DNA of 64,000 nucleotides from an uncultured Gemmatimonadales bacterium (GCA_947259585.1 CAMYMV010000009.1:40658-104657); one strand, 5' to 3'; shown: positions 16,688 through 46,294, numbered from the stretch's first letter. Numbers and translations are program-made. The notes: a model not told the origin generated them from the letters alone.

Positions 16688-16743
16688 AATCTCGGAGGAG
16701 GCGCGTAAAGCGACCGTGAAGACAGCGTGAAGGTTTGTTTAGT
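16688..16743 (-). promoter_or_regulatory. Island operator/promoter site J (drives 16618->14828 operon)
   Basis: Minus strand reads CTAAAC-N4-CTTCAC-N5-CTTCAC-N5-CTTTAC-N11-GAGATT. Confidence 0.6.
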
Positions 16744-16804
16744 GAGGTAGCGGGGTCTGTTGCGAGCATGCTGATCTGCAGTAGGCAGCTGGATATAGGA
16801 TCTG

Positions 16805-16859
16805 GTTAAGGTTTCTTCACCCAGCTTTTAGCAAGCCTTCACGGGCAAGGGCGTACGAT
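16805..16859 (+). promoter_or_regulatory. Island operator/promoter site A (Rieske gene)
   Basis: GTTAAG-N4-CTTCAC-N5-TTTTAG-N5-CTTCAC-N11-TACGAT. Confidence 0.65.
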
Positions 16860-16937
16860 CCGATGCAAGGCTCCGGACCTAGCTGGGCCAGTGTGCCGCT
16901 CGGTCGTCGTCACCCTCTCTCAAGGAAGTCTTGAAAG

Positions 16938-17432
16938 TTGGCTGGAATGCCTACCGACAGATTGGGCAGGGACCAGAAAGGATCCCGCCGGAGGACCTCG
17001 AACCCAGGGCGGAGGAGGTTCATCAACTGGCTGCTCGGCACGAGCGCCGGTGGGCTCATGCTGGCTGTGCTCTATCCGGTCGTTCGGTACGTGATCCCTC
17101 CGGCCTCCGCAGAATCCGCAGCCCGTTCAGTCGCTCTCGACCTCGCAGCTGACGAGATTGAGCCGAACACTGGACAGATCTTCCGGTTCGGTACCGCCCC
17201 TGGCATCCTCGTCCGAACGCCGGCTGGGGAGCTGCGTGCGTTCTCAGCGGTCTGCACGCACCTCGCGTGCACCGTCCAGTATAGACCTGACCTGAGCCAC
17301 ATCTGGTGCGCCTGCCACAACGGCCATTTCGATCTGAACGGAATCAACATCGCTGGCCCGCACCCACGCCCGTTGGACTCGTACAGCGTCAAGGTCGGAG
17401 ACAGGCGGATTGTGGTATCGAAGGGGGACTGA
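16938..17432 (+). CDS. Rieske [2Fe-2S] protein with twin-arginine signal
   Basis: RRRFINWLLGTSAGG (Tat-like signal), plus CTHLAC...CACHNGHF (CxH...CxxH Rieske ligands). Confidence 0.88.
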   Translation: MAGMPTDRLGRDQKGSRRRTSNPGRRRFINWLLGTSAGGLMLAVLYPVVRYVIPPASAESAARSVALDLAADEIEPNTGQIFRFGTAPGILVRTPAGELRAFSAVCTHLACTVQYRPDLSHIWCACHNGHFDLNGINIAGPHPRPLDSYSVKVGDRRIVVSKGD

Positions 17433-17497
17433 AGACCGTCGTTCACCGCATCTAGGGCCGTCTCGGCACCACCCATGCTGTCTCCCTGACACACCCT

Positions 17498-17552
17498 CTT
17501 AAGAAACCTTAACGCTGTCTTCAGGCGGACTTAACGAGATTTCGTCTACGCT
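17498..17552 (+). promoter_or_regulatory. Island operator/promoter site B (TonB-DUF411-YHS operon)
   Basis: CTTAAG-N4-CTTAAC-N5-CTTCAG-N5-CTTAAC-N11-TACGCT. Confidence 0.65.
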
Positions 17553-17651
17553 GTCTGAGAAATGGGTGTCCTGATGTTCAGCCGTCCAGGTGACCAATCC
17601 GCAAGTAGCGGCGAATGGGAGCCGCCGGCCGATCGTCGGGAGGAGGTTTGA

Positions 17652-18329
17652 ATGACGACGTCGACCGACAGGGGAGACAGAGATCTCCCCGAAAGCGCCA
17701 ACGATACATTCAAGCGGCAGCAGTCCAACTTGGTGAGCCTGGGCCTGATTGTAGCTGTTGCTGTTCACTTCGCCTTCTTCACGCTGTTTCCGCGTCTGCA
17801 CGCTGCAGATCTGTCGGGTCGCGACGGGGAGATCGAGGCGGTACAGCTCCCGCCGGAAGTTCGGATACCGCCTCCGCCCCAGCAGGTCGCCCGGCCCGCG
17901 ACGCCAAAGGTCGCTGCGGCGGAAGTGAACGAAGACGTGACGATCGCACCCACCACGTTCGATGCGAATCCGGCAGAGAACCTCCCGCCGCCCCCGAGGG
18001 CCGGGACCTCTCCGGACGATCGGCCCACCTTCATTCCCTACGACACGCCGCCCAGGCTGCTTAACCCGGATGAGATCCGGAAGGCGCTGGCGCGCCTCTA
18101 TCCCGACCGGCTCCGTGAGGCAGGGGTCGAAGGCGCGGTGGTTCTCTGGATCTTCATCGACTCGAGGGGAGAGGTGCGGAAGTCGCACGTCCAAAGCGGC
18201 AGCGGCTACGACGCGATGGACAAGGTGGCCCAGGAGATCGTCGGGCGAATGCGGTTTACCCCGGCCAAGAACCGGGATAAGACGACGCCGGTATGGGTCG
18301 CTCAGAGAGTCGCCTTCGAAGTCGGGTGA
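17652..18329 (+). CDS. TonB-family energy transducer (C-terminal TonB domain)
   Basis: N-terminal TM helix, a Pro-rich linker (PPEVRIPPPPQQV), and a TonB_C-like end (AVVLWIFIDSRGEVRKSHVQSGSGYDAMDKVAQEIVGRMRFTPA). Confidence 0.8.
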   Translation: MTTSTDRGDRDLPESANDTFKRQQSNLVSLGLIVAVAVHFAFFTLFPRLHAADLSGRDGEIEAVQLPPEVRIPPPPQQVARPATPKVAAAEVNEDVTIAPTTFDANPAENLPPPPRAGTSPDDRPTFIPYDTPPRLLNPDEIRKALARLYPDRLREAGVEGAVVLWIFIDSRGEVRKSHVQSGSGYDAMDKVAQEIVGRMRFTPAKNRDKTTPVWVAQRVAFEVG

Positions 18330-18370
18330 CTCTCGTGTTGCAGGACGAGAAAACCAACAGGAGTCGTGTG

Positions 18371-18859
18371 ATGAAAAACAGGAACATTGTCGGAATCGGG
18401 ACCGCCCTTGCCATCGCGGCCGTAGTCGGCGCGTTCACATTGCTGTCTTCGGGCCAGAAGATCGCAGCAGGCCCCTCGCTCTCGGAGGAAGGGCCCGAGA
18501 TCCTGGTCTACAAGGGGCCGCAGTGCGGTTGCTGCGACAAGTGGGCCGAGCACCTCGAGGAAGCCGGCTTGAAGGTGACCGTAGAGGAAATCGAGAACCT
18601 TCACCCCATCAAAGCCAAGTACGGCATCAGGCCGGAGCTTTCCTCTTGTCACACGGCGGTCGTCGAGGGCTATGCGATCGAGGGACACGTCCCGGCAGAT
18701 GAGATCCTTCGCCTGCTGGAAGAGCGTCCCGAAGTCGCAGGACTCACGGTACCCGGCATGCCGATCGGCTCTCCGGGGATGGAGGAAGGACCGGCGGAGG
18801 CCTACGAAGTCCTGACGTTCGATTCATCTGGTAATACAGCAGTTTTCGCTAAGCGCTGA
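18371..18859 (+). CDS. DUF411 (CopG-type) periplasmic metal-binding protein
   Basis: YKGPQCGCCDKWAEHL...CHTAVVEGYAIEGHVPADEILRLL...VPGMPIGSPGME. The start is at MKNRN (18371). Confidence 0.88.
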   Translation: MKNRNIVGIGTALAIAAVVGAFTLLSSGQKIAAGPSLSEEGPEILVYKGPQCGCCDKWAEHLEEAGLKVTVEEIENLHPIKAKYGIRPELSSCHTAVVEGYAIEGHVPADEILRLLEERPEVAGLTVPGMPIGSPGMEEGPAEAYEVLTFDSSGNTAVFAKR

Positions 18860-19035
18860 GGATCTGTGGGAGGCGTCGCGTCCAGCTTCTTGAACCGGGC
18901 GCTCCGAGGGCGTCACCCGGTGCGAGCTGGAACGCGTCGCCTCTCCAGCAACCTGGGGCAACCCGGAACCGAAGCGTCGGTGGACAGGAGGAGGTGACTT
19001 CCGTCGCTCAGGTGCCGAAAGGAGGATCAGGAGCC

Positions 19036-19695
19036 ATGCAGATACGAGACCCGGTATGCGGTATGAGTTTCGACCGCGAGGAAGCTGTCGCTGTCGTGGA
19101 GCAAGCGGGGGAGGATTATCGCTTCTGCTCCCCCGGCTGCGCGGAGGCATTTGCGCAAGATCCTGACCGGTTCATCGAAATCCAGGAGTCTCTGCCCGTC
19201 GATCAGCCTCTTAGCGACCGCTTCCGTGGGCGGCTCGACGACCCGGATGAGATAGGTGCCACCGAGCCCCTCTCGACCACGTGTCCGATCTGCGGAGTGG
19301 AAACAGGGGTGGCACGTGTCTGCCAGACGGAACTCGGTTCGCTCGGGTTGGTCGAGCTCGAGACGATGGTGCGTAACGAGTGGCGGCGCCGCATGGGCAG
19401 CGAAGCCTACCGAAGGCCACATCCACGATCGCTGATCAGGTCGCTGGTCGTATATGCGCTTGCGCCGGAGAGTTTGGCGCGACGAATGACCGCTGAGAAC
19501 GAGGTGTGGAGTGAGGTTGCCATGCTCGAGTCCTGGGGCCTTAGCAGACAGGCTATGAGGGCTGAGTTGCAGGAATTGATGCAGGCAACCCTGGATGTCT
19601 TGGCGGACAACTGCGCCGAAGTCGATGAAAGCCGGGCGATCCTGGACCCGATCGAGAGGATGCTCGAAGAGACACTCAGCTGGCCGCCTGCGTAG
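19036..19695 (+). CDS. YHS/TRASH-domain protein with about 150-aa unknown C-terminal domain
   Basis: MQIRDPVCGMSFDREEAVAVVEQAGEDYRFCSPGCAEAFAQDPDRF. The ATG at 19036 follows AAAGGAGGA. Confidence 0.8.
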   Translation: MQIRDPVCGMSFDREEAVAVVEQAGEDYRFCSPGCAEAFAQDPDRFIEIQESLPVDQPLSDRFRGRLDDPDEIGATEPLSTTCPICGVETGVARVCQTELGSLGLVELETMVRNEWRRRMGSEAYRRPHPRSLIRSLVVYALAPESLARRMTAENEVWSEVAMLESWGLSRQAMRAELQELMQATLDVLADNCAEVDESRAILDPIERMLEETLSWPPA

Positions 19696-19813
19696 CAGGA
19701 ACCACTGTCGGCCCGGCCCCGAGATGCCGGCTGTCGCACCTATCCTTACCTAGCGGTACCGCCGCCCAGATCCCCGAAGTCGATCTAGGCCGTCTACTCC
19801 GTAATCCAGGCTA

Positions 19814-19868
19814 GTTAAGGTTTCTTCACTCGACTTTAAGCCGGCCTTCACGCGTACCCTCCCATAGT
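19814..19868 (+). promoter_or_regulatory. Island operator/promoter site C
   Basis: GTTAAG-N4-CTTCAC-N5-TTTAAG-N5-CTTCAC-N11-CATAGT. Confidence 0.65.
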
Positions 19869-19900
19869 TGCACCCGAAAGCATAGGCGAACCGCAGCAAG

Positions 19901-20665: not shown

Positions 20666-20721
20666 CATAAAGATGTCTTCACGGCAGCTTCAGGCGGTCT
20701 TTAATGCGCACTCACTATCCT
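20666..20721 (+). promoter_or_regulatory. Island operator/promoter site D (copA operon)
   Basis: CATAAA-N5-CTTCAC-N5-CTTCAG-N5-CTTTAA-N11-TATCCT. Confidence 0.65.
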
Positions 20722-21444: not shown

Positions 21445-21632
21445 GGTTCTGGCCGCGAAAGGGAGACCTCACCGATCGGCCGCCCCTCGTCACCTGTCCG
21501 ATCTGCAACATGACTTTTCGGTCGGACAAGGCGGCGGCGACGGCGAAGCGCGGTAGCTGGATCTACTACTTCTGTACGGAGGCGTGCCTTCGGCAGTTCG
21601 AGGAAGATCCCGCGCGCTACGCGAAGGGATAA
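21441..21632 (+). CDS. YHS/TRASH-domain small protein
   Basis: MRFWPRK...CPICNMTF...YYFCTEACLRQFEEDPARY. Its start overlaps the upstream stop (ATGA). Confidence 0.8.
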   Translation: MRFWPRKGDLTDRPPLVTCPICNMTFRSDKAAATAKRGSWIYYFCTEACLRQFEEDPARYAKG

Positions 21633-21649
21633 GGGGCGGAGGAGGGTGC

Positions 21650-22351
21650 ATGGACCCCGCCGTACAGATCGTACGCGCGTACCTCCAGCTCAACGGGTAC
21701 TTCACGATCTGCGAGTTCCCGGTCGTAGAGCGGTCGGTGAGGGGAGGGCGTTACAGCGCCGCAACGGACATTGACGTCCTAGCGCTTCGCTTTCCCCACG
21801 CGGCCCACGAGATCCACGTCCGACCACCAGGAAAAGGACGAACGACCGGGCCTCATCGACCCGAACAGACGGTACACTTGGACGCCGATCCGGCCTTGAG
21901 GATTCCCGACGACAGGCTCGACATGATCATAGGAGAGGTGAAGCATGGGCGCGCGGAAGCGAACCCCCGACTTCTCGATCCGCTCGTCCTTGAAACCGCC
22001 ATCTCGCGAACCGGCTGCTGCCCTCCAGCTGCGGTCCGGAGGACCGTGGAACGGCTTGCACGGCAGGGACACGCCGAACTCGATCACGGTGACGGCCTAA
22101 GGTGTCGCGTGCGACTGATGGCCTTCGGTGGGGTCGCATCTGGCGGTGGCAAGGTCGAAGTGATGCGTCTTCAGCACGCGGCCGGGTTCATCCACAAGCA
22201 CCTATGGAAGTACGATCGCGAGCTGAAGCCGGCGCGCTTCGGGGATCCGATGGTCGACCTCTTCCAGCTGTTTCAAAAGCTTGGTCTGTTCGCCGGCGAG
22301 CAAGGCGGCACCCGGATGGCTGCGGGCAATCATGGAGGAGGTCAACCATGA
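21650..22351 (+). CDS. PD-(D/E)xK nuclease-fold protein, unknown function
   Basis: VRAYLQLNGYFT..E..ATDIDVLA...MIIGEVKHG follows the E / D / ExK pattern of YraN/NucS-type folds. The ATG at 21650 follows GGAGGAGGG, and the 3' end overlaps the next gene by ATGA. Confidence 0.6.
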   Translation: MDPAVQIVRAYLQLNGYFTICEFPVVERSVRGGRYSAATDIDVLALRFPHAAHEIHVRPPGKGRTTGPHRPEQTVHLDADPALRIPDDRLDMIIGEVKHGRAEANPRLLDPLVLETAISRTGCCPPAAVRRTVERLARQGHAELDHGDGLRCRVRLMAFGGVASGGGKVEVMRLQHAAGFIHKHLWKYDRELKPARFGDPMVDLFQLFQKLGLFAGEQGGTRMAAGNHGGGQP

Positions 22352-22881
22352 GTGTCGCCCGCGATCGCGACTCTGAGTCGCGCGGGTGTCGCGTCTGCCT
22401 CGTCGTTTCCGGGCTCTCGTGCGCCGGTGAAACCGCCTCGATCGAGCGCCGGCTGTCGGCTCTGGACGGAGTACGGAGAGCCACCATCAGTCCGCTTCGG
22501 GACCGCGTTTACGTGGATGTCGAGCGGCTTGTGCAAGTGGAAGGAGTTGTCGAGCGCCTGGAGCACCTCGGTCATCCGGTAGACAGCGGTCTCTTGCAGG
22601 TCACGACGTGGATAGCGGGCTCAGCGGAACGGCTCGACCAGCTGAGAGAACGACTTCTCGCATTGAACCACGTCGTCTACTGCCATGCGTTCGGACCGAC
22701 GGGACGGCTGGATTTGGGCCTCGAGCTTCGAGGGGAGTGGAAGATAGCGGCACATGAGATATGCCGGCTTCTGTGCCAAGCCGCCGGCGAGCGCGAGCCG
22801 ATTCTGCCAGCCGACCAGGCTGCAGCTCGTTCGCCCGAGATCACCCCGACGCGACGGGAAGGAGGAATGCGGACACCTTGA
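22348..22881 (+). CDS. HMA-like (ferredoxin-fold) protein with degenerate metal site
   Basis: [29 protein letters not shown] has the position and spacing of GMTCxxC, but the second Cys is replaced. The gene is coupled on both sides (ATGA, TTGA). Confidence 0.6.
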
Positions 22882-25379
22882 ACGATACCAATGGCTTGAG
22901 CTCTCGGATCAACATCTCGGATGCCGTACAGGACGCTGCCAACGCCGAGCTTTCCGTGCTCGGAATGACATGCGCTCACTGCTCAACCGCAATCGAGGAG
23001 ACGGTGAGCGCGATCGACGGAGTCCGTGCCGTCCACGCGAACGCCACTTCCGGCGTGGTCCACGTCGCCTATGAACCGTCACGGACCAGGATCGGGGCGA
23101 TCGTCGAGGCGGTGGAGCGGTCCGGATACCGAGTTGGCCGTGAGACGCTCCGTGTGCCGATCGATGGGATTCACTGCGCGAGCTGCGTGACGCCAATCGA
23201 GGAGGCGCTGACCGCTGCCCATGGCGTGCTAGACGCCACAGTGAGCCCAGCGACCGAGACCGCCACCGTGGATTACCTGCCGAGCGTGGCCGATTTCGGA
23301 TCGATCGAGGCGGCCATCGAATCTGCCGGCTACCGTGCGCACAACGGCTTGAAACAAGAGGAGCCGGATCGGGAAGCAGCCGACCGCGAGGCGGAGTATC
23401 GGTCGCTGATGCGGAAGTTCTGGTTCGCAGCGATCATCTCCGTCCCGGTGCTGGCTACAGCCTACCCGGAATTCGTGCCTGGATTATCGGGCCTCAGCCG
23501 GACCACGGTCCGATGGATTTGGGCGGTGGACGCGCTGCTCGCGCTCGCTGTGCTTCTCTACTCGGGCCGGCACTTCATCACAGGAGCCGTGGCTTCGTTC
23601 CGCCGCCGGTCGGCGGACATGAACACCCTCATCGCGATCGGCACCGGAGCTGCCTGGCTGTACTCCGTCGTGGCGATCGCCGTGCCGACACTTTTCCCAG
23701 AAGGTACCGCGGAGGCGTTCTTCGATGTAACAGCCGTGGTCATCGCCCTCGTCGTGCTCGGGCAGGCCCTCGAGGTGCGAGCCAAAGGCCGAACCTCCGC
23801 CGCAATTCGCAAGCTGCTCGATCTCCAGGCGAAGACCGCCCGCGTCATCCGGGATGGGGTGGAGGTGGATATCCCGGTGGAAGAGGTAGAAGTCGACGAC
23901 GTCGTGGTCATCCGGCCTGGCGAGAAAGTGCCGGTCGATGGGACGGTCACCGAGGGGGCGAGCGCGATCGATGAGTCGATGGTCACGGGAGAGAGCATCC
24001 CGGTAGAGAAAGGTCCGGGAGATCCGGTAATCGGGGCGACGATCAACCGGGCCGGCAGTCTGAAGTTCAAGGCCACGAAGGTGGGCAAGGACACAGCCCT
24101 CGCACAGATCGTCAAGATGGTACGGGACGCACAAGGTTCGAAGGCGCCGATTGCGCGGACCGTGGATGTCGTGTCGAGCTACTTCGTCCCGGCCGTCATG
24201 ATAGTGGCCCTGCTGGCCTTCGGGGCCTGGTACACCTTCGGGCCAAGCCCGCAGCTCACGTACGCCATCGTCGTTGCAGTCACCGTTCTGATCATCGCGT
24301 GCCCCTGTGCTCTCGGTCTCGCCACTCCGATGTCGCTCATGGTCGGGGTCGGAAAGGCAGCCGAAAAGGGTGTGCTCATTCGGAACGGAGAGGCACTGCA
24401 GGCCTCTCGCGCCCTAAACGCCGTCATCCTGGACAAGACGGGGACTATCACCAAGGGGCAGCCCGAACTGACCGACGTGCTCACGAGTGACGGTTTCGCG
24501 GAGATCGACGTGCTACGGCTCGCCGCCTCCGCCGAGCGTCGCTCCGAGCATCCGCTAGGAGAGGCGATCGTACGGGCGGCACAGGCGCGAGAACTCGAGC
24601 TGGCAGAGCCCGAAGGCTTTAAGGCGATCGCGGGCCATGGGATCGAAGCGACCGTCGAAGAAAGGTCGATACTGCTCGGCAACCGGAAGCTCATGACCGA
24701 CCGAGACATCGACTTCGGCCCGATGGCGGAGGGGCTGACGCGGCTATCCGACGAGGGAAAGACCGCCATGTTCCTGGCGATTGACGGTCGACCGGCCGGG
24801 ATCGTAGCGGTCGCCGATACACTGAAGGACGACTCGTCCGCAGCCGTAGCGGCCCTCCATCGGCTGGGACTCGAAGTGGTCATGCTGACCGGCGACAACC
24901 AGCGGACCGCTCAGGCGATCGCGAGCCAGGTAGGGATCGAGCGGGTGTTGGCCGAAGTCCTTCCGGAGGAGAAGGCAGCGCAGGTTCAGAAGCTTCAGGC
25001 GGAGGGCAAGAGAGTCGCGATGGTGGGAGACGGAATCAACGATGCTCCGGCCCTAGCGCAAGCAGACGTGGGGATCGCAATCGGGACGGGCACGGACGTG
25101 GCGATCGAAGCCGCTGACGTCACTCTGGTAGGCGGCAGCCTAACAGGCGTCGTGCTCGCCATCGATGTTTCCAAGAGAACGTTCCGCAACATCAAGCAGA
25201 ATCTGGTCGGGGCGTTCGGCTACAACACGCTGGGTATCCCGATCGCGGCAGGCGTTCTCTATCCCGCCTTCGGCACGCTCCTCTCCCCCCTCATCGCCGG
25301 CGCCGCGATGGCATTCAGCTCCGTCACCGTGGTGACGAACGCGAACCGCCTGCGTCGCTACCGGCCTCGAGAAGCGTAG
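22878..25379 (+). CDS. copA: Copper-translocating P1B-type ATPase with two N-terminal HMA domains
   Basis: GMTCAHC and GIHCASC HMA motifs, [25 protein letters not shown]. The start is proposed at the TTG at 22878 (AAGGAGGAA upstream, TTGA overlap). The track start at 22761 overlaps the previous gene. Confidence 0.93.
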
Positions 25380-25410: not shown

Positions 25411-25785
25411 ATGTCAGTGGACATAATCTTGGTCGACCTCGCGGTAATCGTCGCCATCGCATGGGTCGCTTGGTACTTCTGGCTTTCTGAGAAAGAGGCT
25501 GTGAGAGCGGTGGCTGCGAGCGGCGCACAGGAGGTCATGATCCGCGTGAAGGGCGGCTACGACCCGGACGTCATAGTCGTAGACAGTGGCCGTCCCGTAC
25601 GGCTGCACTTCGATCGTCAAGAGACGGCGTCCTGCAGCGAGATGGTTGTTTTCCCCGACTTCGATGTCTCGCGGCGGCTGCCGGAAGGTGAGCTCGTCAC
25701 GATCGAGCTCACGCCAGAGACTCCTGGCGAGTACGAGTTCTCCTGTCAGATGGGAATGTTGCGTGGTCGGCTGATCGCTAATTGA
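25411..25785 (+). CDS. Membrane-anchored cupredoxin-like domain protein (ATPase-associated type)
   Basis: N-terminal TM helix, then VMIRVKGGYDPDVIVVDSGRPVRLHF..CSEMVVFPDF...GEYEFSCQMGMLRGRLI. Confidence 0.8.
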   Translation: MSVDIILVDLAVIVAIAWVAWYFWLSEKEAVRAVAASGAQEVMIRVKGGYDPDVIVVDSGRPVRLHFDRQETASCSEMVVFPDFDVSRRLPEGELVTIELTPETPGEYEFSCQMGMLRGRLIAN

Positions 25786-25842
25786 GCGTTCGATTCTCCT
25801 GCGCTGGCGGCGTTAAAGAAGGACCGGCGGAAAGAGGCGTGA

Positions 25843-27158: not shown

Positions 27159-27177
27159 ATCGCCGGCACGCCGCTCT

Positions 27178-27534
27178 ATGAAAGCGCCGTATCTCGGGAT
27201 CGTCTTCCTCGGCATCGTCGCAATTTTGAACGCGGCGATGATGATCGGGATGAGCCACATGATGGGCTCCCGTCGACCGACCTCTACCAAGGCCGAACCG
27301 TACGAATCCGGCATCCCGCCGCTCGGGGGAACTCGAGAACGATACTCGGTGAGTTTCTACATGGTAGCCGTGCTCTTCATCATCTTCGATATCGAAACGA
27401 TCTTCTTGATCCCGTGGGCGGTTGTGTTCCGGGGCCTGCCTCTGGGAGGGTTCCTCGCGATGATCCTCTTCCTGGCCGTCCTGGGTGTCGGTCTCGTGTA
27501 CGCCTGGAAGAAGGGAGCTCTCGAGTGGGACTGA
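27178..27534 (+). CDS. NuoA/ND3-family subunit (orphan)
   Basis: KAEPYESGIPPLGGTRERYSVSFYMVAVLFIIFDIETIFLIPWAVVF...GLVYAWKKGALEW. Confidence 0.88.
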   Translation: MKAPYLGIVFLGIVAILNAAMMIGMSHMMGSRRPTSTKAEPYESGIPPLGGTRERYSVSFYMVAVLFIIFDIETIFLIPWAVVFRGLPLGGFLAMILFLAVLGVGLVYAWKKGALEWD

Positions 27535-27722
27535 CCGGCACTCTAGGCCGTTCACCTGTTACCGATGGCTGCCGCCCCTTGACGTGGATATCGCGCACGC
27601 CCTCCTCCGCCTGACCCACTTCGTAAGCTGCAGCATCGCCAAGTAGAAGCCGATCCTTGCCGCCAGCGCTCGCTGGCGTGTCGGGAGCCCCTCTCACCGC
27701 GCATGGCTCGCCTCGACGTTTC

Positions 27723-27777
27723 GTGAACATGTCTTCATGCCAGCTTTAGCGGCGCTTTAGGGAGCGGGACGTATCGT
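27723..27777 (+). promoter_or_regulatory. Island operator/promoter site E
   Basis: GTGAAC-N4-CTTCAT-N5-CTTTAG-N5-CTTTAG-N11-TATCGT. Confidence 0.65.
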
Positions 27778-31908: not shown

Positions 31909-31963
31909 AGGCTAGGGAAGGGCGTGTTAAGTCAACCACAAATCGAGGTTAAGATTCGTTCAC
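31909..31963 (-). promoter_or_regulatory. Island operator/promoter site F-prime (EamA / YHS-membrane operon)
   Basis: Minus strand reads GTGAAC-N4-CTTAAC-N5-TTTGTG-N5-CTTAAC-N11-TAGCCT. Confidence 0.6.
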
Positions 31964-31990
31964 AGGTGCCTGGCCCCGCGCCTTTGCTTT

Positions 31991-32045
31991 CCTAAGAAAT
32001 CTTATGACGTCCTTCAGGTCCCCTTAACAGCGATCCTCCTACAGT
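31991..32045 (+). promoter_or_regulatory. Island operator/promoter site F (YHS-SHOCT unit)
   Basis: CCTAAG-N4-CTTATG-N5-CTTCAG-N5-CTTAAC-N11-TACAGT. Confidence 0.65.
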
Positions 32046-32749: not shown

Positions 32750-32927
32750 ATGGTTGCGACCACGGCTCTCATTGCCGGCGGCCTTCTGGTTATTGTGACG
32801 GCAGTGACATTGTTGGCGACGAACGCGTGTCAGGGTAGGTCAGCCGAAGGAGGGAAGACTCAAAAACCTAAGGAGACGATACGCCCTTGGCGAGAACTAC
32901 AATCAGGGTTTCAAGGACCTGGTTTAG
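32750..32927 (+). pseudogene. Tandem paralogue of the SHOCT gene carrying a 1-nt frameshift
   Basis: DNA alignment to 32363-32671: between the shared GAACGCGTGTC and AGACGATACGC blocks the spacing is 43 nt in the first copy and 42 nt here. The SHOCT end (RRYALGENYNQGFKDLV*) is therefore in a different frame from the TM start. Confidence 0.55.
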
Positions 32928-34411
32928 GCTTGCCTGGCAGCGCGGATCGGGTCCGAATCTCCAACGCCGACCGCCCCTCCAGCGGCGGGTGTGGATGCCG
33001 GCATCCTCAACTCGAAGGTCGTGCCTGATCCGTTCGCACCACGGACGGAGACCGTGCCCCCGTGGCCTTCGACGATCGCCTTCACGATGGAGAGCCCAAG
33101 GCCAGAGCCGGGGCCAGCCCGCCGTCCAGCTTCGCCACGTGAGAAACGATCGAAGAGTTGAGCCTGCTCTTCGGCGGGGATGCCCGGCCCACTGTCCGAC
33201 ACCTCGATCACGACGTCTCCAGCCTCCCCTTCGTGGACTGCAAGGCGGATTCTCCCTCCGCTCGCGGCATACTTGACCGCGTTGTCCACGAGGTTGCCGA
33301 GCGCCCGCTCGATAAGGACCTGGTCTGCCTGCATCATGAGATCGATCTCCGCCTCCACATCGATCTCTGTCCCTGCAGACTTGGCCGCTCCACGGTACCT
33401 AGTGGCAGCCTTCTGAAGTAGTGCCGAGACTTGCAAGGGCTCGAGCACGGGCGCCAACCCGCCGCTTTCCCCGCGGGCAAGCATGATCAAATCGTCCGCG
33501 AGGGCTGATACGCTCTTCACGTCTTCGAGACTCTGCTCGAGAATGGCTTCATACTCCTCCAACGATCGGCGTCGACGTAGCGCGACTTCAACGTCGCCCC
33601 TGAGGACCGTTAGAGGCGTGCGGATCTCGTGCCCGACATCCGCGATGAAGCTACGCTGGGCCTCGAACGCCTCGTCGATCCGAGCAAGCATCGAATTGAG
33701 AACCGTAACCAGCCGTTCCATCTCGACGGTCTCGGCCGCAGCGTCGATGCGATGTTCATCTCCCGTCATCTCGATTCTCTCGGCCTGCTGGATCGTCTCC
33801 ATGACAGGCCGAACTGCGGAGCCTGCGAGCCACCAACCGAGCAGGAAGCTCACGCCAGTACCTAGCAGCGCGAGCACACCGAGCAGGTTTCGAAAGGTTG
33901 CTAGGACCTCGTACGCCTGCTCGGTCGAGACGATGACCTGAAGGAGATGGAGCTCGTGCTGCGGGCCCACGAGTCCGAGAGGATATAGTATGCCGCGGTA
34001 CCGTTCGCCCTCCCAATGGGTGTCGAACAGCTCGAGTTCCCCGGTGTTGACGACTCGCCACCGGAGCCGCTGGCTCAGAGGGAGGTCTTGCTCTCTGAGA
34101 TTGCGGGTACGCAGTACCGGTGCTCCCTCGTTGCTCCAGATCTGCGCGAAACGCTTCAGGACGGTTTCGGTACCCGGGCCAGCGGTTAGGAACAGTTCAT
34201 CGTGAAAATGAACCGTGCTGTCGGCCGAGGCTGCCGCGCCCGAGGCCTCGATAGACGCCAGACGCAGAAGCGTGCTGTCGATCTGAGCGAGCAGGAGATT
34301 GCGAAGCACGAGGTAGCCCACTGACGAGCCGATAACGGCCACCGCCAGGACGGCCAGGCCAAACCGGATGGCAAGTTTCCCTCGGAAGGAGCGCCGGAGC
34401 GCATTGATCAT
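32924..34411 (-). CDS. Heavy-metal-type sensor histidine kinase (CusS-like)
   Basis: Two TM helices flank a periplasmic domain. HAMP domain, H-box FIADVGHEIRTPLT, and HATPase_c blocks (NLVDNAVKY, DSGPGI, GSGLGLSIV) follow. Confidence 0.9.
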   Translation of the reverse strand: MINALRRSFRGKLAIRFGLAVLAVAVIGSSVGYLVLRNLLLAQIDSTLLRLASIEASGAAASADSTVHFHDELFLTAGPGTETVLKRFAQIWSNEGAPVLRTRNLREQDLPLSQRLRWRVVNTGELELFDTHWEGERYRGILYPLGLVGPQHELHLLQVIVSTEQAYEVLATFRNLLGVLALLGTGVSFLLGWWLAGSAVRPVMETIQQAERIEMTGDEHRIDAAAETVEMERLVTVLNSMLARIDEAFEAQRSFIADVGHEIRTPLTVLRGDVEVALRRRRSLEEYEAILEQSLEDVKSVSALADDLIMLARGESGGLAPVLEPLQVSALLQKAATRYRGAAKSAGTEIDVEAEIDLMMQADQVLIERALGNLVDNAVKYAASGGRIRLAVHEGEAGDVVIEVSDSGPGIPAEEQAQLFDRFSRGEAGRRAGPGSGLGLSIVKAIVEGHGGTVSVRGANGSGTTFELRMPASTPAAGGAVGVGDSDPIRAARQA

Positions 34412-35085
34412 TTCTCGACCCGACCGAGCCTGAAGCCGACGCCCCGCACGGTGAAGATGATCCTCTCTCGATCTCCCTCCTCGAGCTTCTTACGCAGGTT
34501 AGCCACGTGAACGTCTACTAGGTTCGTGCCTGGGTCGAAGCTCATGCCCCAGACGCGGTCCAGAAGCTCGAGGCGCTTTACGACCTGTCCCGGCTTTCTG
34601 ATCAGCGATTCCAAGAGCTTGAACTCGGTGGGCGTGAGGTCTATTGGGTTTCCCGCCCGTCGGACCTCGTGCAAGAGGCGGTCGAGCTCGACGTCCTCGA
34701 ATCGAAGCGTGCCCTCACCGATTGGCGCAGCGCGTCGTGCGAGCGCCCGAACCCGGGCCAGCAACTCCTCAAAATCGAACGGCTTGGTGAGATAGTCGTC
34801 CGCACCGACATCCAATCCGTGAACGACATCCTCTCGGGAGTCCCGCGCGGTGAGCATGAGGATCGGCGTGGAGTTTCCCTCCGCTCGCAGCTCGGACGTC
34901 ACGTGATACCCGCTCTTCTGGGGCATCATTACGTCGAGAACGAGCACGTCGTACTCGGTTACGTGCGCAAGCGCCACCGCTTCCACGCCGTCGCGAGCCA
35001 GATCAACAACGTGGCCTTCTTCCTTGAGTCCCTTGAGGACGAAGCGTGCCACACGAGCATCGTCCTCAGCCAATAAGATCTTCAT
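34408..35085 (-). CDS. OmpR-family response regulator (CusR/CopR-like)
   Basis: MKILLAEDD...DVLVLDVMMP...ILMLTARD...GADDYLTKPF, plus a winged-helix C-terminus (RVWGMSFDPGTNLVDVHVANLRKKL). It overlaps the kinase gene by 4 nt. Confidence 0.92.
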   Translation of the reverse strand: MKILLAEDDARVARFVLKGLKEEGHVVDLARDGVEAVALAHVTEYDVLVLDVMMPQKSGYHVTSELRAEGNSTPILMLTARDSREDVVHGLDVGADDYLTKPFDFEELLARVRALARRAAPIGEGTLRFEDVELDRLLHEVRRAGNPIDLTPTEFKLLESLIRKPGQVVKRLELLDRVWGMSFDPGTNLVDVHVANLRKKLEEGDRERIIFTVRGVGFRLGRVEK

Positions 35086-35199
35086 AAGTTATGAAACCGG
35101 CTCCTCTTACCGAGCTGAATCTACACCACACCTGGCCTATCGAGTTCTAATACCCCCTCCCAAGCGGCGGGTGCGGCGGGACACCATCCCGTTCTCAGC

Positions 35200-35254
35200 C
35201 TCAAGAGATCTTAACGAAAGCTTTGCGAAATCTTAAGAGTGACTTCCGCACCTT
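35200..35254 (+). promoter_or_regulatory. Island operator/promoter site G (weak -10)
   Basis: CTCAAG-N4-CTTAAC-N5-CTTTGC-N5-CTTAAG-N11-CACCTT. It lies about 370 nt upstream of the first gene start (35622). Confidence 0.5.
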
Positions 35255-39179: not shown

Positions 39180-39604
39180 CTGCAAGGCTCTCGAAATGGT
39201 GATCCGGGAGGAGCTTGCAGACGAGCCGCATTCCGCCTGAAACCGCAAGAAAAACACCGTCCATCAGATTTGGCCAGCACCCGCAGTGCCGCGCATCTCC
39301 GCACAATTGAGAAGCAAGACGCTGACGGTATCGGTAGCCGGCCAGGCCTCCGCAAGCGACTCTGAGGGCAAGACTGGAATTACTCCTGAAATGACGAATC
39401 GACGAGAAGGCCTGTCGCTCGCCAGCTGGTGGAACCGGCCAGATCCGACGAGATCATCATCGAGCGACGGCGAAGCAGCCTCGAGTGGGGCGTCATTGGG
39501 CTCGTGATCGGACTGGCGGCGGGTCTGGGTCTCTGCTTGCTACGTCAGGATCCTGCGTCGTCATGAAGCCACGATCGGTGGCTGAAGAAACGAGCGAGAG
39601 ATGG

Positions 39605-39658
39605 GTGAAGAAATCTTATGCTTCGATTGCGAAAAACTTTAGGGGTCCGGGCTAGCTT
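39605..39658 (+). promoter_or_regulatory. Island operator/promoter site H (RND efflux operon)
   Basis: GTGAAG-N4-CTTATG-N5-ATTGCG-N5-CTTTAG-N10-TAGCTT. Confidence 0.6.
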
Positions 39659-39764: not shown

Positions 39765-41042
39765 ATGAAAGCTGCGCGCATTCTGCAGGCCTTCTTGCCC
39801 CTGGCCGTTACGGCTGCCCTTCAGGCCGGTCCCGGTATCTCGCAGACTACCGCCGGTCACTTGTCGGTCGACGAGGCCGTGTCCCTCGCCAGGGAAGCGA
39901 ATCCCGCACTCAGGGCCGCGAGGATGCGTGCGGATGCGGCAGCCGAGCGGATACCCCAGGCAGGCGCACTGCCGAATCCGACCCTTGGTTTTGGGCTCGT
40001 CAACCGCCAGTTCGCGGACTTCGGGTCGACCGAAGAGCGCATGCTACAGAACCGCTTCGAGATCTCTCAGAGGTTCCCGTGGCCTGGGACGTTGAGCTCC
40101 TCGAAGGACCGGGCGGAGCACCTCTCCGTGGCTAGCGATCTAGAGATGGAGGAAACCGAGCAGGCGCTGATCGCTCGGGTCAAGACGGTCTACTACCGAC
40201 TCGCTTTCATGGATCGGGCGCTCGAGATCATGGAGGAGACGCGCGAGCTGCTGCGCGAGTTCCTGGATGTTTCCTCGACGCTCTACTCGGTGGGTGAGGG
40301 CCTGCAGCAGGACGTGCTTCAGGCTCAGGTCGCTGTCGCTTCCATGACCGAGGACATCACGGTAGTGGAGCAGGACCGTCTCGCCATGGCGGCTCGCCTC
40401 AACGCACTGCTGGGGAGAGATGCGACGATTCCGATTGGCGACCTCGATCTACCTCCACCGGGTGGTCAACTTCCGCCTCCTGACACGCTCATGGCTCTCG
40501 CCGACGTGCAGCGTCCTGCACTCAGCGCGGCCCGGGAGAGGGCGCTGGCCGCGGAGGCGGGATACCGTGCCGCCAAAAGGTCGATCTACCCTGACTTCGC
40601 GCTGCTCTTCGCTTACGGGCAGCGGCCCGAGTTCAACGACCTGGCCACAATCATGATCGGGATCAGCCTTCCGCTTTGGGCTGGCAGCAGCCAGCTGCCC
40701 CAGCGTCGCGAGATGCTGGCCATGCAGGCCATGGAAGAAGCGAGGGCGATCGATCTCTACAACGAGACGTTCGCCCGAATAGCAGAGCTCAGGGCCGAGG
40801 CGGAGCGCGACCGACGGCTGGTATCGCTCTACGACACATCGGTTCTTCCGCAGGCGCGGGCGGCCGTCGAATCGGCGCTCTCCGCGTATCGCGTGGGAAA
40901 AGTCGACTTCATGACGCTGGTACAAAACGAACTTACGGTGAACCGCTTCGAGATCGAAGGGGTTCGTCTGGCGGCTGACTACCAACGGGCTTTGGCTGAG
41001 CTCGAGGCTCTCGTAGCAGCCGATCTAGGAGGTGCACAATGA
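39765..41042 (+). CDS. TolC-family outer-membrane efflux protein (CusC/CzcC-like)
   Basis: Signal peptide MKAARILQAFLPLAVTAAL, then two OEP repeats. The start is trimmed to the ATG at 39765. Confidence 0.88.
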   Translation: MKAARILQAFLPLAVTAALQAGPGISQTTAGHLSVDEAVSLAREANPALRAARMRADAAAERIPQAGALPNPTLGFGLVNRQFADFGSTEERMLQNRFEISQRFPWPGTLSSSKDRAEHLSVASDLEMEETEQALIARVKTVYYRLAFMDRALEIMEETRELLREFLDVSSTLYSVGEGLQQDVLQAQVAVASMTEDITVVEQDRLAMAARLNALLGRDATIPIGDLDLPPPGGQLPPPDTLMALADVQRPALSAARERALAAEAGYRAAKRSIYPDFALLFAYGQRPEFNDLATIMIGISLPLWAGSSQLPQRREMLAMQAMEEARAIDLYNETFARIAELRAEAERDRRLVSLYDTSVLPQARAAVESALSAYRVGKVDFMTLVQNELTVNRFEIEGVRLAADYQRALAELEALVAADLGGAQ

Positions 41043-42328
41043 GGTGGTTCCCGAACCGCCAGCTGAGGTATTCAGTAGGCCTGATCCTGATATTCGTGCT
41101 GAGCGCGGCTTGCGGCGAAGGCGATGCTTCTCAGATCGGAGAGGCCTCGGGAGAGCAGGGCACCGGTACGGCCGCGCCGGCCGAGGAGATGGATGCGGGA
41201 GCAGGCGATCGGCAGCCCGTCCACCTCTCGGCGGAGCAGGAGCGCGCACTGGGCGTCGTCTATGTCACCGTCGGTCGAGAGACGTTGACGCGATCGATCC
41301 GCACGATCGGGCGCATCGAGGCGGCCGAGCCGAACGTCGCCGACATCACACCGAAGATCGAGGGGTTCATCGAACAGCTGTTCGTGGCCACGACCGGCGA
41401 GACGGTCCGCCGGGGCCAGCGCCTTCTGACCCTCTACAGTCCTGAGCTGGTAGCCGCGCAGGAGGAGCTCCTCACGGCGCGGCGGCTCGCCGCCGGGATC
41501 GACTCCGCTGCGGGCGAATCGTGGAGGGCCGCCCGTGCGATGCTCGAGGCCTCGCGTCGTCGGCTCGTCTACTGGGACATCACGACTGAGCAGATCGACC
41601 AACTCGAGAGCACGGGAGAAGTGACGAAGACGCTTACCCTGGTGGCGCCCGTCAACGGGATTGTGCTGGAGAAGGACGTCTGGGAGGGGCAGCGGGTGAT
41701 GCCGGGGATGCGGCTCTACCGCATCGCCGATCTCACCGAGGTGTGGGTCGAGGGCGAGGTGTTCGAGCAGGACATCAAGTTCGTCGTGGAGGGCGCGCAG
41801 GCGCACATGGAAGTCGCCGCCTATCCGGGCGAGCACGTGATGGGCGTCGTGAGCTTCGTCTACCCGACCGTGGATGTGCAAAGCCGGACGAACCGGGTGC
41901 GTGTGACGGTGCCGAACCGCGATCTCCGGCTGAAGCCGGGGATGTTCGCCACGATTTTCTTCGACGTCCAGGTCGCCGACGAAGCGCTCACGGTGCCGAT
42001 GGAGGCCGTGGTCGTGACGGGCGAGCGCAACCTCGTGTTCTCGCGTGACGAGGACGGCATGCTGGAGGCTCGCGAGGTCGTGCTGGGCGCCCGGGCAGGC
42101 GAGCGGATCGCAATCCTCTCCGGTCTGTCGGAGGGTGAGCGCATCGTTGGCTCCGCCAACTTCCTCGTCGACGCGGAATCGCGCCTCGGAGGCGCCGGCG
42201 GCATGCCCGGCATGCAGCACGCCGGCCACGGGACAGTGCTCGAGTCCGAGTCGCAGGAGGCCGGCCAGCGCTCCGATACGACGGAGGCCCAGAAGCAGGG
42301 CGACGCGGAGCACCAAGACCATGATTAA
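41039..42328 (+). CDS. RND efflux periplasmic adaptor (CusB/CzcB-like)
   Basis: HlyD_D23-type pattern (LTLYSPELVAAQEELL, LVAPVNGIVLEKDV, GMFATIFF). The tail is His-rich. The gene is coupled by ATGA to the upstream gene. Confidence 0.9.
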   Translation: MRWFPNRQLRYSVGLILIFVLSAACGEGDASQIGEASGEQGTGTAAPAEEMDAGAGDRQPVHLSAEQERALGVVYVTVGRETLTRSIRTIGRIEAAEPNVADITPKIEGFIEQLFVATTGETVRRGQRLLTLYSPELVAAQEELLTARRLAAGIDSAAGESWRAARAMLEASRRRLVYWDITTEQIDQLESTGEVTKTLTLVAPVNGIVLEKDVWEGQRVMPGMRLYRIADLTEVWVEGEVFEQDIKFVVEGAQAHMEVAAYPGEHVMGVVSFVYPTVDVQSRTNRVRVTVPNRDLRLKPGMFATIFFDVQVADEALTVPMEAVVVTGERNLVFSRDEDGMLEAREVVLGARAGERIAILSGLSEGERIVGSANFLVDAESRLGGAGGMPGMQHAGHGTVLESESQEAGQRSDTTEAQKQGDAEHQDHD

Positions 42329-45300: not shown

Positions 45301-45482
45301 CTGACGTCATGAAGCGGATCGCCTCGCCGATGGTGGGCGGCATGATCAGCGCCACGATTCTCACGCTCATCGTGATCCCCGCGATCTACCTGCTGTGGCG
45401 GTCCTGGCAGGTCAAGCGACGGCCGGAGGCGCCAGTCGAGGAAGCGCTCCGCGACGAGATGGCGCTCGTTCCGGCCGAGTAG
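42321..45482 (+). CDS. Heavy-metal efflux RND permease (CusA/CzcA family)
   Basis: MINRVIAWSLENRFLVLLAT...SLGGIAIAIGAMVDGAIVMIENM...; about 1053 aa with 12-TM RND architecture. The start at 42321 overlaps the adaptor gene's 3' end. Confidence 0.94.
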   Translation: MINRVIAWSLENRFLVLLATAAVIGGGVWAMMTTPLDAIPDLSDVQVIVQTDFREQAPDIVEDQITYPIASEMLKVPGARVVRGFSFFGLSLVYVIFEDGTDIYWARSRVLEYLNGIRQQLPPAVEPVLGPDATGVGWVFEYVLESDSLNLAELRTLQDWYIRYQLTAVPGVSEVASLGGFVRQYQVEVDPERLRAFGIPVTRVADAIGAHNIDIGARVLEMGGREYMIRGLGYLEGTEDIRNVAVGATPNGTPIRVADVATVQLGPAPRRGAADLDGRGEVVAGIVVMRFGSDALKTIEAVKERVEEINRGLPAGTQLRTAYDRSDLIHRAIETLRDKLLEESLIVAAVAVVFLLHFRSALVAIVTLPVGILISFIVMRWIGVNANIMSLGGIAIAIGAMVDGAIVMIENMHKHLERAEPGASRWEIVYESARQVGPPLFYSLLIITFSFLPVFALEQQEGRLFKPLAYTKTFAMAGSAFLAITLVPVLMGYLIRGRVRPESRNPVNRVLRTLYRPVIQFATRRPWIVVGAAVLVLAATVLPWQRLGSEFMPPLHEGSVLFMPTTVPGVSIAQAREIMRYQDSVLASFPEVETVLGKAGRARTATDPAPLDMFETTITLRPKEEWRPGLTYNELIAEMDQAVRMPGVTNAWTMPIKGRIDMLATGVRTPVGIKIFGPDLDSLQALGERVERIVQEVPGTRSAFAERGVSGYYVDIDVDRIEASRYGLNVGDIHKAIMATVGGMTASITVEGRERYEVNVRYPRELRDNPEKLREVLIPAMSGAQIPLGQVASISVLQGPMAVKTEDAFPVTIIFVDIGERDVGGYVQEAKRLVSDRLVLPAGYTLVWSGQYEFMERVAQRMKIVVPVTLGIIFLLLYLNFRGLAESLIVMLALPFSLVGGIWFLWLLGYNTSVAVWVGFIALAGVAAETGVVMLIYLDEAFHRRSLEGRMSSASDVAEAVREGALERLRPVVMTVTAITAGLAPILWSSGTGADVMKRIASPMVGGMISATILTLIVIPAIYLLWRSWQVKRRPEAPVEEALRDEMALVPAE

Positions 45483-45490
45483 GAGGACAC

Positions 45491-45862
45491 ATGACCGAAC
45501 AAGCCGCGGCCGCCACCACTCTCGTCGAGGTTCGAGCCATCGTCAGGGTCGAAATGCTAGACCGCGTGGTCCACTGCCTAAAGGACTGCGGTCTGCCGAG
45601 GCTGACCGTGCAGCGTGCGCATGCCATTGGATCGGCCGTCGACACGGCGACGATGAAGATCTCGTTCGAGGAAGGAAGCGAGTACGCGGACATGGCGATC
45701 GTGCGCTGCATCTGCGCGGCAGACCGCTGCGAAATGCTCACCGAGATCATCACCGGAGCTGCACGGACTGGCCGACCCGGCGACGGCATCGTGTCCGTCC
45801 ACCCGGTCCTGAACCTGACCAAGATCCGAACGAGCGCCGAAGGCGCTGCAGCCCTGGAATAG
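45491..45862 (+). CDS. PII-like (GlnB-fold) protein of the efflux-pump-linked subgroup
   Basis: LVEVRAIVRVEMLDRVVHCLKDCG...TGRPGDGIVSVHPVLNLTKIRT. The ATG follows TAGGAGGA. Confidence 0.75.
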   Translation: MTEQAAAATTLVEVRAIVRVEMLDRVVHCLKDCGLPRLTVQRAHAIGSAVDTATMKISFEEGSEYADMAIVRCICAADRCEMLTEIITGAARTGRPGDGIVSVHPVLNLTKIRTSAEGAAALE

Positions 45863-45906
45863 AACGGCTCACTGCGTGCTCAGGCGGGATTGAACTTGCA
45901 AGAGAT

Positions 45907-46185
45907 ATGGAGAATCAAGAAGAGAAGAGACAGGAGCTTCTGAAGCGGCTTGCAAGGATTCGCGGTCAAGTTGACGGAATCGGCCGCATGCTTGAGCAGC
46001 GGCGTGAAACAGGCGAGGTCCTGCAGCAGCTGGCCGCAGCTCGATCGGCATTGCTGAGCGCTGAGAGCGTCCTGTTCGAGGCCTATGTCGAGCGCACCGT
46101 CACGGCGGCGATCGAAGACGGAGATGCGAGAGCGGAAGCCGTCGGACGGGAGCTGGCCCTGCTCCTTCGACGCCATATGCGCTGA
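45907..46185 (+). CDS. CsoR/RcnR/FrmR-family (DUF156) regulator lacking the usual Cys/His ligands
   Basis: ELLKRLARIRGQVDGIGRMLEQRRETGEVLQQLAAARSAL is the family helix pattern. The protein contains no Cys at all. Confidence 0.75.
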   Translation: MENQEEKRQELLKRLARIRGQVDGIGRMLEQRRETGEVLQQLAAARSALLSAESVLFEAYVERTVTAAIEDGDARAEAVGRELALLLRRHMR

Positions 46186-46239
46186 GACGTGACCTGCCGA
46201 GGAAGCGTGACCTGCGTTCTGCAGACAACGAACAATCTC

Positions 46240-46294
46240 ATTAACGAATCTTGTGGTGACCTTCACGGTTCCTTGAGTCACTCAACCTTAGGAT
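46240..46294 (+). promoter_or_regulatory. Island operator/promoter site I
   Basis: ATTAAC-N4-CTTGTG-N5-CTTCAC-N5-CTTGAG-N11-TAGGAT. Confidence 0.65.

Follow-up and report, generated by a model that had tools for sequence, protein, structure and literature searches.

The question raised by a 64,000-nucleotide segment of a Gemmatimonadota chromosome, from an uncultured Gemmatimonadales bacterium (GCA_947259585.1, CAMYMV010000009.1:40658-104657; the whole stretch is called the window below), is how the genes of the metal-resistance island that it carries are switched on, and whether they respond together. Eleven intergenic regions of this island contain the same element, an array of four phased hexamers placed just upstream of a TAnnnT box; the copies are labelled J, A to E, F', F and G to I in their order along the window. 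Comparison of these copies with each other and with the corresponding loci of related genomes suggests that the arrays are probably the operators of activator-dependent promoters that lack a -35 box, and that they form one metal regulon under the OmpR-family response regulator encoded at 34408-35085 on the minus strand.

All eleven stretches were recovered at the coordinates and on the strands given for them in an earlier note on this DNA. A loose pattern fitted to the sites, CTT-N9-TT-N8-CTTNA, was searched on both strands of the 64 kb window and matched exactly 11 times, each match being one of the eleven sites. The chance expectation for this pattern, obtained from 100 dinucleotide-preserving shuffles, is 0.09 (two matches at most, and never three), a count that is partly circular because the pattern was derived from the sites themselves. 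A position weight matrix (PWM) of 39 bp, derived from the 11 sites with the -10 region left out, scores them at 35-48 bits, and the runner-up position in the window, the reverse strand of site G, reaches 17 bits (17.4). When each site was omitted from the matrix in turn, it ranked just after the remaining ten, with the exception of H, which had one extra position above it. Neither an inverted nor a direct pair of hexamers occurs alone elsewhere in the window, where shuffles give 0.5 and 0.1, respectively; the complete array is therefore the unit. The arrays are all intergenic, sit between Pfam-supported open reading frames (ORFs) and are aimed at the next gene, and J/A and F'/F form back-to-back pairs, as had been described.

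The alignment of the 11 sites concentrates its information content in the hexamers, in the short A/T-rich stretch (rwwT) joining hexamer 1 to hexamer 2 and in the TAnnnT box, and is close to zero in the other spacers and in the flanks. This profile of conserved hexamers and -10 box separated by empty spacers points to selection on a protein-binding site rather than to copied repeats. The layout can be written as sTkAAs-N4-CTTmAC-N5-yTTnAG-N5-CTTnAC; in all 11 sites, the TT of each hexamer (AA where it is inverted) is invariant and the hexamer centres lie 10, 11 and 11 bp apart. In total, the array spans 39 bp and consists of a 6-N4-6 inverted repeat and two in-phase direct copies at 11-bp steps. 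The description of the element as four direct repeats has to be corrected accordingly, as hexamer 1 is an inverted copy. A model from hexamers 2-4 gives it 5.9 bits per site in the window when it is read as reverse complement, whereas a direct reading yields 1.3 bits for a 10-bp spacing and -4.8 bits for an 11-bp spacing; for the sites of relatives, the three values are 7.6, 2.1 and -1.1 bits. The dominant half-site of the relatives is CTTCAy, and their hexamer 1, nTGAAG, complements it exactly. With hexamer 1 in inverted orientation, the claim that the element does not resemble the inverted repeat bound by CusR also fails in its geometry: the first two hexamers make up a 6-N4-6 inverted repeat, and only the half-site sequence differs. 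The 16-bp inverted repeat alone was tried as a diagnostic and, with one mismatch, was poorly specific in AT-rich loci, so that only the full array is diagnostic.

The -10 columns, located 11 bp after hexamer 4, show T in 7, A in 10 and T in 10 of the 11 sites; the spacer is 10 bp at site H and 11 bp at the others. Measured in this way, the TAnnnT box lies 10-11 bp from hexamer 4 and 21-22 bp from hexamer 3. A scan for sigma-70 -35/-10 consensus promoters, covering 16-36 kb and thus nine sites (H and I lie outside this interval), found none at the nine, and both this result and the spacing indicate that hexamer 4 abuts the -10 box in place of a -35 element. The layout of an OmpR/PhoB-type activated promoter, which had been proposed for these regions, is thereby upheld, with half-sites on one helical face and the proximal one 10-11 bp from the -10 box. 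If transcription starts about 7 nt past TAnnnT, the array would span roughly -62 to -25, with half-site centres near -58, -48, -37 and -26, and would thereby sit where the absent -35 element is expected. Such a class II arrangement is the one used by PhoB-type activators. It has also been described for AgrR, as a type II activator (PMC7380067). A Shine-Dalgarno (SD) sequence can be recognised in front of most downstream genes, and their likeliest starts give leaders of roughly 35-100 nt.

The candidate regulator belongs to a two-component operon (32924..35085) on the minus strand, in which the response regulator at 34408-35085 (Response_reg PF00072, 4.9e-29; Trans_reg_C PF00486, 1.5e-26) is followed by a sensor histidine kinase at 32924-34411 with HisKA and HATPase_c domains. 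No OmpR-type regulator besides it was found in the window, as the earlier note had stated; the others found are one MerR and two ArsR. The best NCBIfam models for the regulator and the kinase are the heavy-metal response regulator and histidine kinase subfamilies, TIGR01387 and TIGR01386. The regulator falls far under the equivalog cutoffs of CusR, HprR and PmrA (for NF007928, PmrA/BasR, 186 versus 330 bits). When the regulator and its DNA-binding domain were searched by sequence against the PDB, M. tuberculosis PhoP, MtrA, PhoB and PcoR came out nearest and BasR low, a ranking that fails to discriminate DNA specificity. The recognition helix reads DVHV[AGST]NLR in the regulators of the window and of its 34 closest relatives (L001-L034), and DVY[IV]RRLR in proteobacterial relatives of 45-53% identity. 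Loss of two arginines in the Gemmatimonadota helix accompanies the different half-site, which fits a changed specificity.

The comparison set was obtained by scanning the regulator protein against one genome per species, which yielded 79 loci. The 34 closest, with 57-76% identity, are all from Gemmatimonadota metagenome-assembled genomes (MAGs); in other phyla, the identity is at most 53%, and among the distant loci only L039 and a partial match, L042, come from Gemmatimonadota or close relatives. At a cut-off of at least 18 bits, PWM matches were present in 18 of the 34 Gemmatimonadota loci and in 1 of the 45 other loci (L050, 18.8 bits). Many of the 45 have a similar guanine-cytosine (GC) content, and the high-GC ones mostly peak below 7 bits. 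The single match outside Gemmatimonadota, CCTAAAAATTCTTTAATGGTCTTTTAACGGGTTTTTAAC at 2917-2955 of an Aminicenantes MAG, lies 1.5 kb downstream of a 50%-identical regulator. The locus as a whole has 68% GC; the match may have arisen by chance in a locally AT-rich part, or it may indicate that the motif is not confined to the phylum.

The position of the array relative to the regulator gene follows gene order. In the kinase-then-regulator clade (L011, L013, L015, L018-L021, L023, L024, L026-L030, L032-L034), the four-hexamer array occupies the short gap before the regulator gene, and in a dozen of these loci (L013, L015, L018, L020, L021, L026-L029, L032-L034) it ends 22-24 nt ahead of the regulator ATG, with an nAGATT box in between and the ATG 6-7 nt past that box. 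This geometry leaves no room for a leader and implies a leaderless, autoregulated regulator transcript; it would also independently place the transcription start about 7 nt past the -10 box, at the start codon. In the clade that shares the gene order of the window (L004-L007, L009, L010, L017), the array is divergent from the regulator gene at 53-88 bp, as is site G. Among the relatives' sites, nAnnnT is found 10-11 nt past hexamer 4 in 27 of 29, compared with about 6% expected from base composition. The sites of L001-L006 precede orthologues of OEP-CusBA, ICMT, LTXXQ-YHS-Rieske, HMA, DUF411, YHS and CopA, and the orthologous OEP-CusBA operon of L001 has a 32-bit site in front. Co-occurrence, placement and shared targets together indicate that motif, regulator and target set travel together across Gemmatimonadota.

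Runs of the heptamer GTGAGCT (and GGGAGCT) were observed upstream of the regulator genes of three relatives, at 1-164 of L016, about 1760-1850 of L019 and about 9880-9990 of L030. They are inserted between the -10 box of the autoregulated promoter and the regulator start, where sister loci have the leaderless ATG, and could represent a variable-length tract that alters regulator expression.

A mechanism consistent with these features can be outlined. The phosphorylated regulator, with the product of 32924-34411 as its partner kinase, would bind the array through its winged-helix domains, probably with two dimers filling the four half-sites, and the subunit closest to the promoter would bring in RNA polymerase by class II activation at a sigma-70-type promoter. 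In this scheme, a single signal from the periplasm, most likely Cu(I)/Ag(I), would turn on the entire island at 14-47 kb. By gene content, copper/silver efflux and sequestration genes (CopA, OEP-CusB-CusA-like, HMA, YHS, DUF411 and cupredoxin) lie downstream of the sites, and Cu(I)/Ag(I) is proposed because the cargo includes a Cu-type P1B ATPase with HMA, a CusCBA-like pump, YHS, DUF411, a cupredoxin and Met/His-rich lipoproteins. Regulator binding and its stoichiometry, activation over repression, the transcription starts and the identity of the metal are what we infer. A more far-reaching version is conceivable and is put forward tentatively: a lineage-specific Gemmatimonadota branch of OmpR-family metal regulators, marked by the DVHV[AGST]NLR helix, with an obligatory hybrid operator of one inverted and three direct half-sites, an asymmetric four-subunit complex, a leaderless autoregulated regulator in the sister clade and an unusually large, directly driven regulon that adds to the efflux genes respiratory and quinone-linked ones (Rieske, cytochrome c, Rnf/Nqr-like, NuoA-like, geranylgeranyl-reductase-family and lycopene-cyclase-domain). 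If this were true, it would point to a remodelling of membrane electron transport by the copper response.

Several observations weigh against assigning the arrays to this regulator and to a metal signal. Both proteins score under the cutoffs of the heavy-metal subfamilies (231 versus 279.2 bits for the regulator, 261.3 versus 292.55 bits for the kinase), and the periplasmic domain of the kinase (residues 1-156) has no match to the heavy-metal sensor model. Inspection of this domain for Cu-binding Met/His motifs gave nothing decisive, and the metal can therefore be named only provisionally. The promoter of the window regulator has no array aimed at the regulator, its operon being the sole unit at 14-47 kb without an array aimed at its own start, and only the divergent site G is near, 114 bp off. 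Autoregulation through the reverse strand of site G (17.4 bits, with GATGGT 11 nt beyond) was considered and dropped, as this site is not conserved in L004. Among the relatives, 16 of the 34 Gemmatimonadota loci have no match of at least 18 bits, and some sub-threshold loci (e.g., L005, L007 and L009) show visibly degenerate arrays. The sites of the relatives were found with the window-built PWM, and their consensus is only partly independent. Finally, one MAG encodes two paralogous regulators on separate contigs (L001 and L003), 75-76% identical to the window regulator, so that cross-regulation is possible. The same pair of paralogues favours the view that the arrays are real operators bound mainly by another regulator encoded beyond the window, either an OmpR-family paralogue or several paralogues sharing the site. 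Consistent with this view, the motif is common to two clades of different gene order (regulator-kinase and kinase-regulator), and in Pseudomonas, CusR, CopR and CzcR share one palindrome (PMC11195947). An external regulator is nevertheless unlikely, since the array lies directly before this family's regulator gene in about a dozen loci, with constant spacing to its start, and in the intergenic region upstream of the regulator in 8 further loci, the window included; nor did the scans of the 64 kb bring up a second OmpR-type gene.

If the regulator does bind the arrays, it might do so as a repressor, with protein across -60 to -25 blocking RNA polymerase until relief by metal. The proximal half-sites overlap the polymerase-binding region, and some OmpR-family members repress, for instance CopR on pcoA2 (PMC11195947). 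Repression appears improbable nonetheless: the nine scanned sites have no sigma-70 consensus promoter, so their promoters should be weak unaided, and the predicted autoregulated leaderless promoters of relatives fit positive feedback. The position and phasing of the PhoB operator are those of class II activation. The position and phasing of the arrays also fit class II activation, as in AgrR (PMC7380067). The strict pairing of motif and -10 box would favour another reading, in which the hexamers serve as the -35 element for an alternative sigma factor of the extracytoplasmic function (ECF) type, and metal-responsive ECF sigma factors exist. A sigma factor, however, needs 16-18 bp, and neither hexamer 4, at 10-11 bp, nor hexamer 3, at 21-22 bp, satisfies this spacing; moreover, four phased copies of which one is inverted are unlike a -35 element, and no sigma-factor gene was found among the scanned ORFs of the window, which together make this reading very improbable. 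Scarcely credible is the proposal that the arrays have no regulatory role and arose by chance or as relics of a duplicated or mobile repeat. Sites A and C do have a 16-nt identical stretch in common, but the remaining spacers and the flanks are unrelated, the chance expectation is 0.09, and the architecture and the distances to the -10 box and to start codons are kept where the regulators are only 57-76% identical. This comparative conservation refutes the repeat-remnant or chance reading as far as sequence analysis reaches.

Taken as operators of activator-dependent promoters, the arrays can be compared with several known systems, of which the AgrR/CusR/CopR box comes nearest, though the half-sites are PmrA-like. 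AgrR of Cupriavidus metallidurans, an OmpR-family silver/copper regulator that is an autoregulated type II activator, recognises the box ATKACA-N4-TGTMAT (PMC7380067). As proposed here, AgrR takes a type II activator position at several metal-gene promoters, divergent ones included, and its autoregulation is positive (PMC7380067). The half-sites differ (ATKACA/TGTMAT for AgrR versus sTkAAs/CTTmAC here), and the AgrR box ATKACANNNNTGTMAT has no match in the window with up to 1 mismatch. The direct repeats of AgrR are imperfect and present at some operators only, whereas two occur here at all 11 sites and in relatives, and AgrR is a regulator of Betaproteobacteria, distant from the Gemmatimonadota regulator. 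A contrast of half-sites by scanning the non-Gemmatimonadota loci for ATKACANNNNTGTMAT was uninformative, as it gave too few matches and none beside regulators. The CusR box of E. coli is ATGACA-N4-TGTCAT, in its full form AAAATGACAAnnTTGTCATTTT, and the Pseudomonas CusR/CopR site is ATTCATnnATGTAAT; these sites are palindromes between divergent operons and serve very small regulons of one or two targets (PMC11195947). The copper box of CusR, PcoR and CopR is, like the element described here, a palindrome for a heavy-metal OmpR-family regulator, and it lies between the regulator operon and a divergent efflux/resistance operon, where site G is placed likewise. It has another sequence, with half-sites of the ATKACA/TGTMAT or TGACAA/TTGTCA type, and no obligatory extra direct repeats, and the one or two targets of CusR/CopR regulons stand against at least 11 promoters here.

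Other known operators share the direct part of the array. The tandem pho boxes of PhoB, the four tor boxes of TorR and the multi-repeat operators of ArcA contain three to five half-sites at 10-11 bp phasing; their proximal site, about 10 bp ahead of the -10 box, stands in for the -35 element, and contact with sigma-70 brings about activation. Their repeats are all direct, and their half-site sequences and signals differ from those of the array. PmrAB is a metal-sensing (Fe3+/Al3+) two-component system. The PmrA/BasR box is a head-to-tail CTTAAG-N5-xTTAAT (PMC3973317) and resembles hexamers 2-4, whose half-site, CTTmAs, is nearly the same and whose direct spacing is likewise 6-N5-6. It comprises two half-sites without an inverted copy, compared with four, one of them inverted, in the array, and the window regulator is no PmrA equivalog, its DNA-binding domain being nearer to PhoP, MtrA, PhoB and PcoR than to BasR. 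As far as sequence can tell, the system works like an AgrR/CusR-like operator of a separate lineage, with its own half-site, two obligatory extra direct repeats and a much larger direct regulon. The half-site preference of the regulators seems to have shifted from ATKACA to CTTmAC, with the 6-4-6-plus-direct-repeat geometry that marks the CusR/AgrR class left intact. The kind of operator, an OmpR-family site at an activator-dependent promoter, is well known; what is new is this particular operator, its conservation throughout the phylum, the prediction of a regulon with at least 11 promoters and the predicted leaderless autoregulated regulator genes of relatives.

The phylum Gemmatimonadota is widespread in soil and sediment, and few of its members have been cultured. 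To our knowledge, its control of transcription is almost entirely unexplored, and a literature search found no paper on metal-sensing two-component systems or promoters in this phylum. The arrays define the operator precisely and supply a consensus for the -10 box (TAnnnT / nAGATT), and the putative leaderless regulator genes of relatives anchor the predicted start. The predicted regulon ties about 35 genes to one signal and suggests candidate copper-stress functions for many products that are uncharacterised or surprising in a metal island, such as Rieske, Rnf/Nqr-like, NuoA-like, geranylgeranyl-reductase-family, ICMT-like, DoxX and SHOCT proteins. In addition, the PWM can be used for annotating metal regulons in Gemmatimonadota MAGs.

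The island itself follows a run of housekeeping genes (metG, accA, dnaE and UPF0182, the last at 11023-13752) that extends to about 13.8 kb. From about 14 kb, where the metal-resistance genes start, the GC content falls from 0.65-0.70 to about 0.61-0.63; directly past UPF0182, the step is from about 0.69 to about 0.61. Scans of the window for boundary markers returned no tRNA gene and no Rfam family, which argues against an integration-site tRNA and against riboswitches in the leaders; no integrase or transposase was present among the scanned ORFs, the boundary region having had no dedicated search for one, and no close plasmid relative was found. The possibility of a known plasmid module was examined by a megablast of 16000-40900 against PLSDB, which gave only matches of 60-250 bp, located in a sphingomonad ICMT gene and in a P-type ATPase; with only such short matches, the island is not a known plasmid-borne module. 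A second metal-resistance block at 48434-54214 carries no arrays. It comprises a MerT-like gene (48434-48781, minus strand), the MerR gene (49116-49517, minus strand), an ArsR gene (50300-50692) alongside a P-type ATPase without HMA domains (50759-52687), an MtrA-like/pterin-binding protein gene (52717-53811, minus strand) and the second ArsR gene (53795-54214, minus strand).

The gene contents of the eleven units match those listed in the earlier note, including EamA and YHS-SHOCT, which Pfam and NCBIfam place in the correct frames. Array J (16705..16743, minus strand; 41.8 bits; predicted -10 GAGATT at 16688-16693) precedes, by Pfam, an ICMT-like gene (15956-16618), a DUF5676 gene, a UbiE-type methyltransferase gene and an ORF at 14159-14650, all on the minus strand, with the SD GGAGGGAG before the ATG at 16618. 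Its back-to-back partner, array A (16804..16842, plus strand; 41.6 bits; predicted -10 TACGAT at 16854-16859), faces a Rieske/PetC-like gene (16938-17432, plus strand; Pfam Rieske). Array B (17497..17535, plus strand), the best site at 48.1 bits, has a predicted -10 TACGCT at 17547-17552 and is followed on the plus strand by Pfam-assigned TonB_C (17652-18329), DUF411 (18293-18859) and YHS (18994-19695) genes. Array C (19813..19851, plus strand; 40.0 bits; predicted -10 CATAGT at 19863-19868) is aimed at a membrane protein with a lycopene-cyclase domain in Pfam (19901/19910-20644, plus strand).

Array D (20666..20704, plus strand; 41.4 bits; predicted -10 TATCCT at 20716-20721) stands before a long plus-strand unit which, according to Pfam and start candidates, begins with an LTXXQ/CpxP-like gene (start about 20821, end 21444), an HMA protein gene and copA (22761-25379). 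Between the LTXXQ gene and copA, two long ORFs at 21584-22351 (no Pfam match) and 22102-22881 (HMA) overlap by 250 nt in different frames; the overlap may be real, or it may stem from a frameshift or a wrongly called start. The copA operon continues at 25411-27534 with Pfam matches to a cupredoxin, two Rnf/Nqr-family membrane subunits and a NuoA-like protein (Oxidored_q4), odd partners for a copper ATPase. Other units contribute Rieske, cytochrome c and DoxX genes, and these and the tail of the copA operon jointly hint that copper stress is linked to membrane electron transport. Array E (27722..27760, plus strand; 39.9 bits; predicted -10 TATCGT at 27772-27777) is followed on the plus strand by a YHS gene (start about 27868, end 28185), a geranylgeranyl-reductase-family flavoprotein gene (28189-29529) and an HMA protein gene (29520-30119), as assigned by Pfam and NCBIfam.

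The second back-to-back pair consists of array F' (31926..31964, minus strand; 40.9 bits; predicted -10 TAGCCT at 31909-31914), which faces an EamA transporter gene (30814-31731, minus strand), and array F (31990..32028, plus strand; 38.8 bits; predicted -10 TACAGT at 32040-32045), which faces YHS/TRASH (32135-32326) and SHOCT (32363-32671) genes on the plus strand, all by Pfam. Two other ORFs were set aside here: 30950-31864, with a low-complexity Arg/Pro translation, in favour of EamA, whose domain lies in the correct frame, and 32050-32286, with an implausible translation, in favour of YHS. Array G (35199..35237, plus strand; 38.6 bits; predicted -10 CACCTT at 35249-35254), divergent from the regulator gene, precedes a plus-strand unit that Pfam resolves into a His-rich YtkA-like lipoprotein gene (35622-36524), a porin gene, an unknown ORF, a cytochrome c gene and a DoxX gene, ending at about 39507. 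The lipoprotein, the product of the first clear gene past G, begins MKLGV...GCAG; its YtkA-like domain is weak, and its long tail, with DEHAEDEH repeats, is acidic and rich in His. Its start lies about 360 nt past the predicted G transcription start, so that either the leader is long or a small ORF at 35368-35625 is also expressed.

Array H (39604..39642, plus strand), the weakest site at 35.1 bits, has a predicted -10 TAGCTT at 39653-39658 and stands before the RND efflux operon, in which Pfam identifies, on the plus strand, OEP (start about 39765, end 41042), CusB-like (41039-42328) and CusA-like (to 45482) genes and, as the last gene, a P-II-like one (45395-45862). Array I (46239..46277, plus strand; 37.3 bits; predicted -10 TAGGAT at 46289-46294) is aimed at a Met/His/Gly-rich Big_5 lipoprotein gene (46373-46912, plus strand; translation and Pfam), with the SD TAAGGAG before the ATG at 46373, and the SnoaL/DUF4440 gene at 46999-47493 probably belongs to the same unit.

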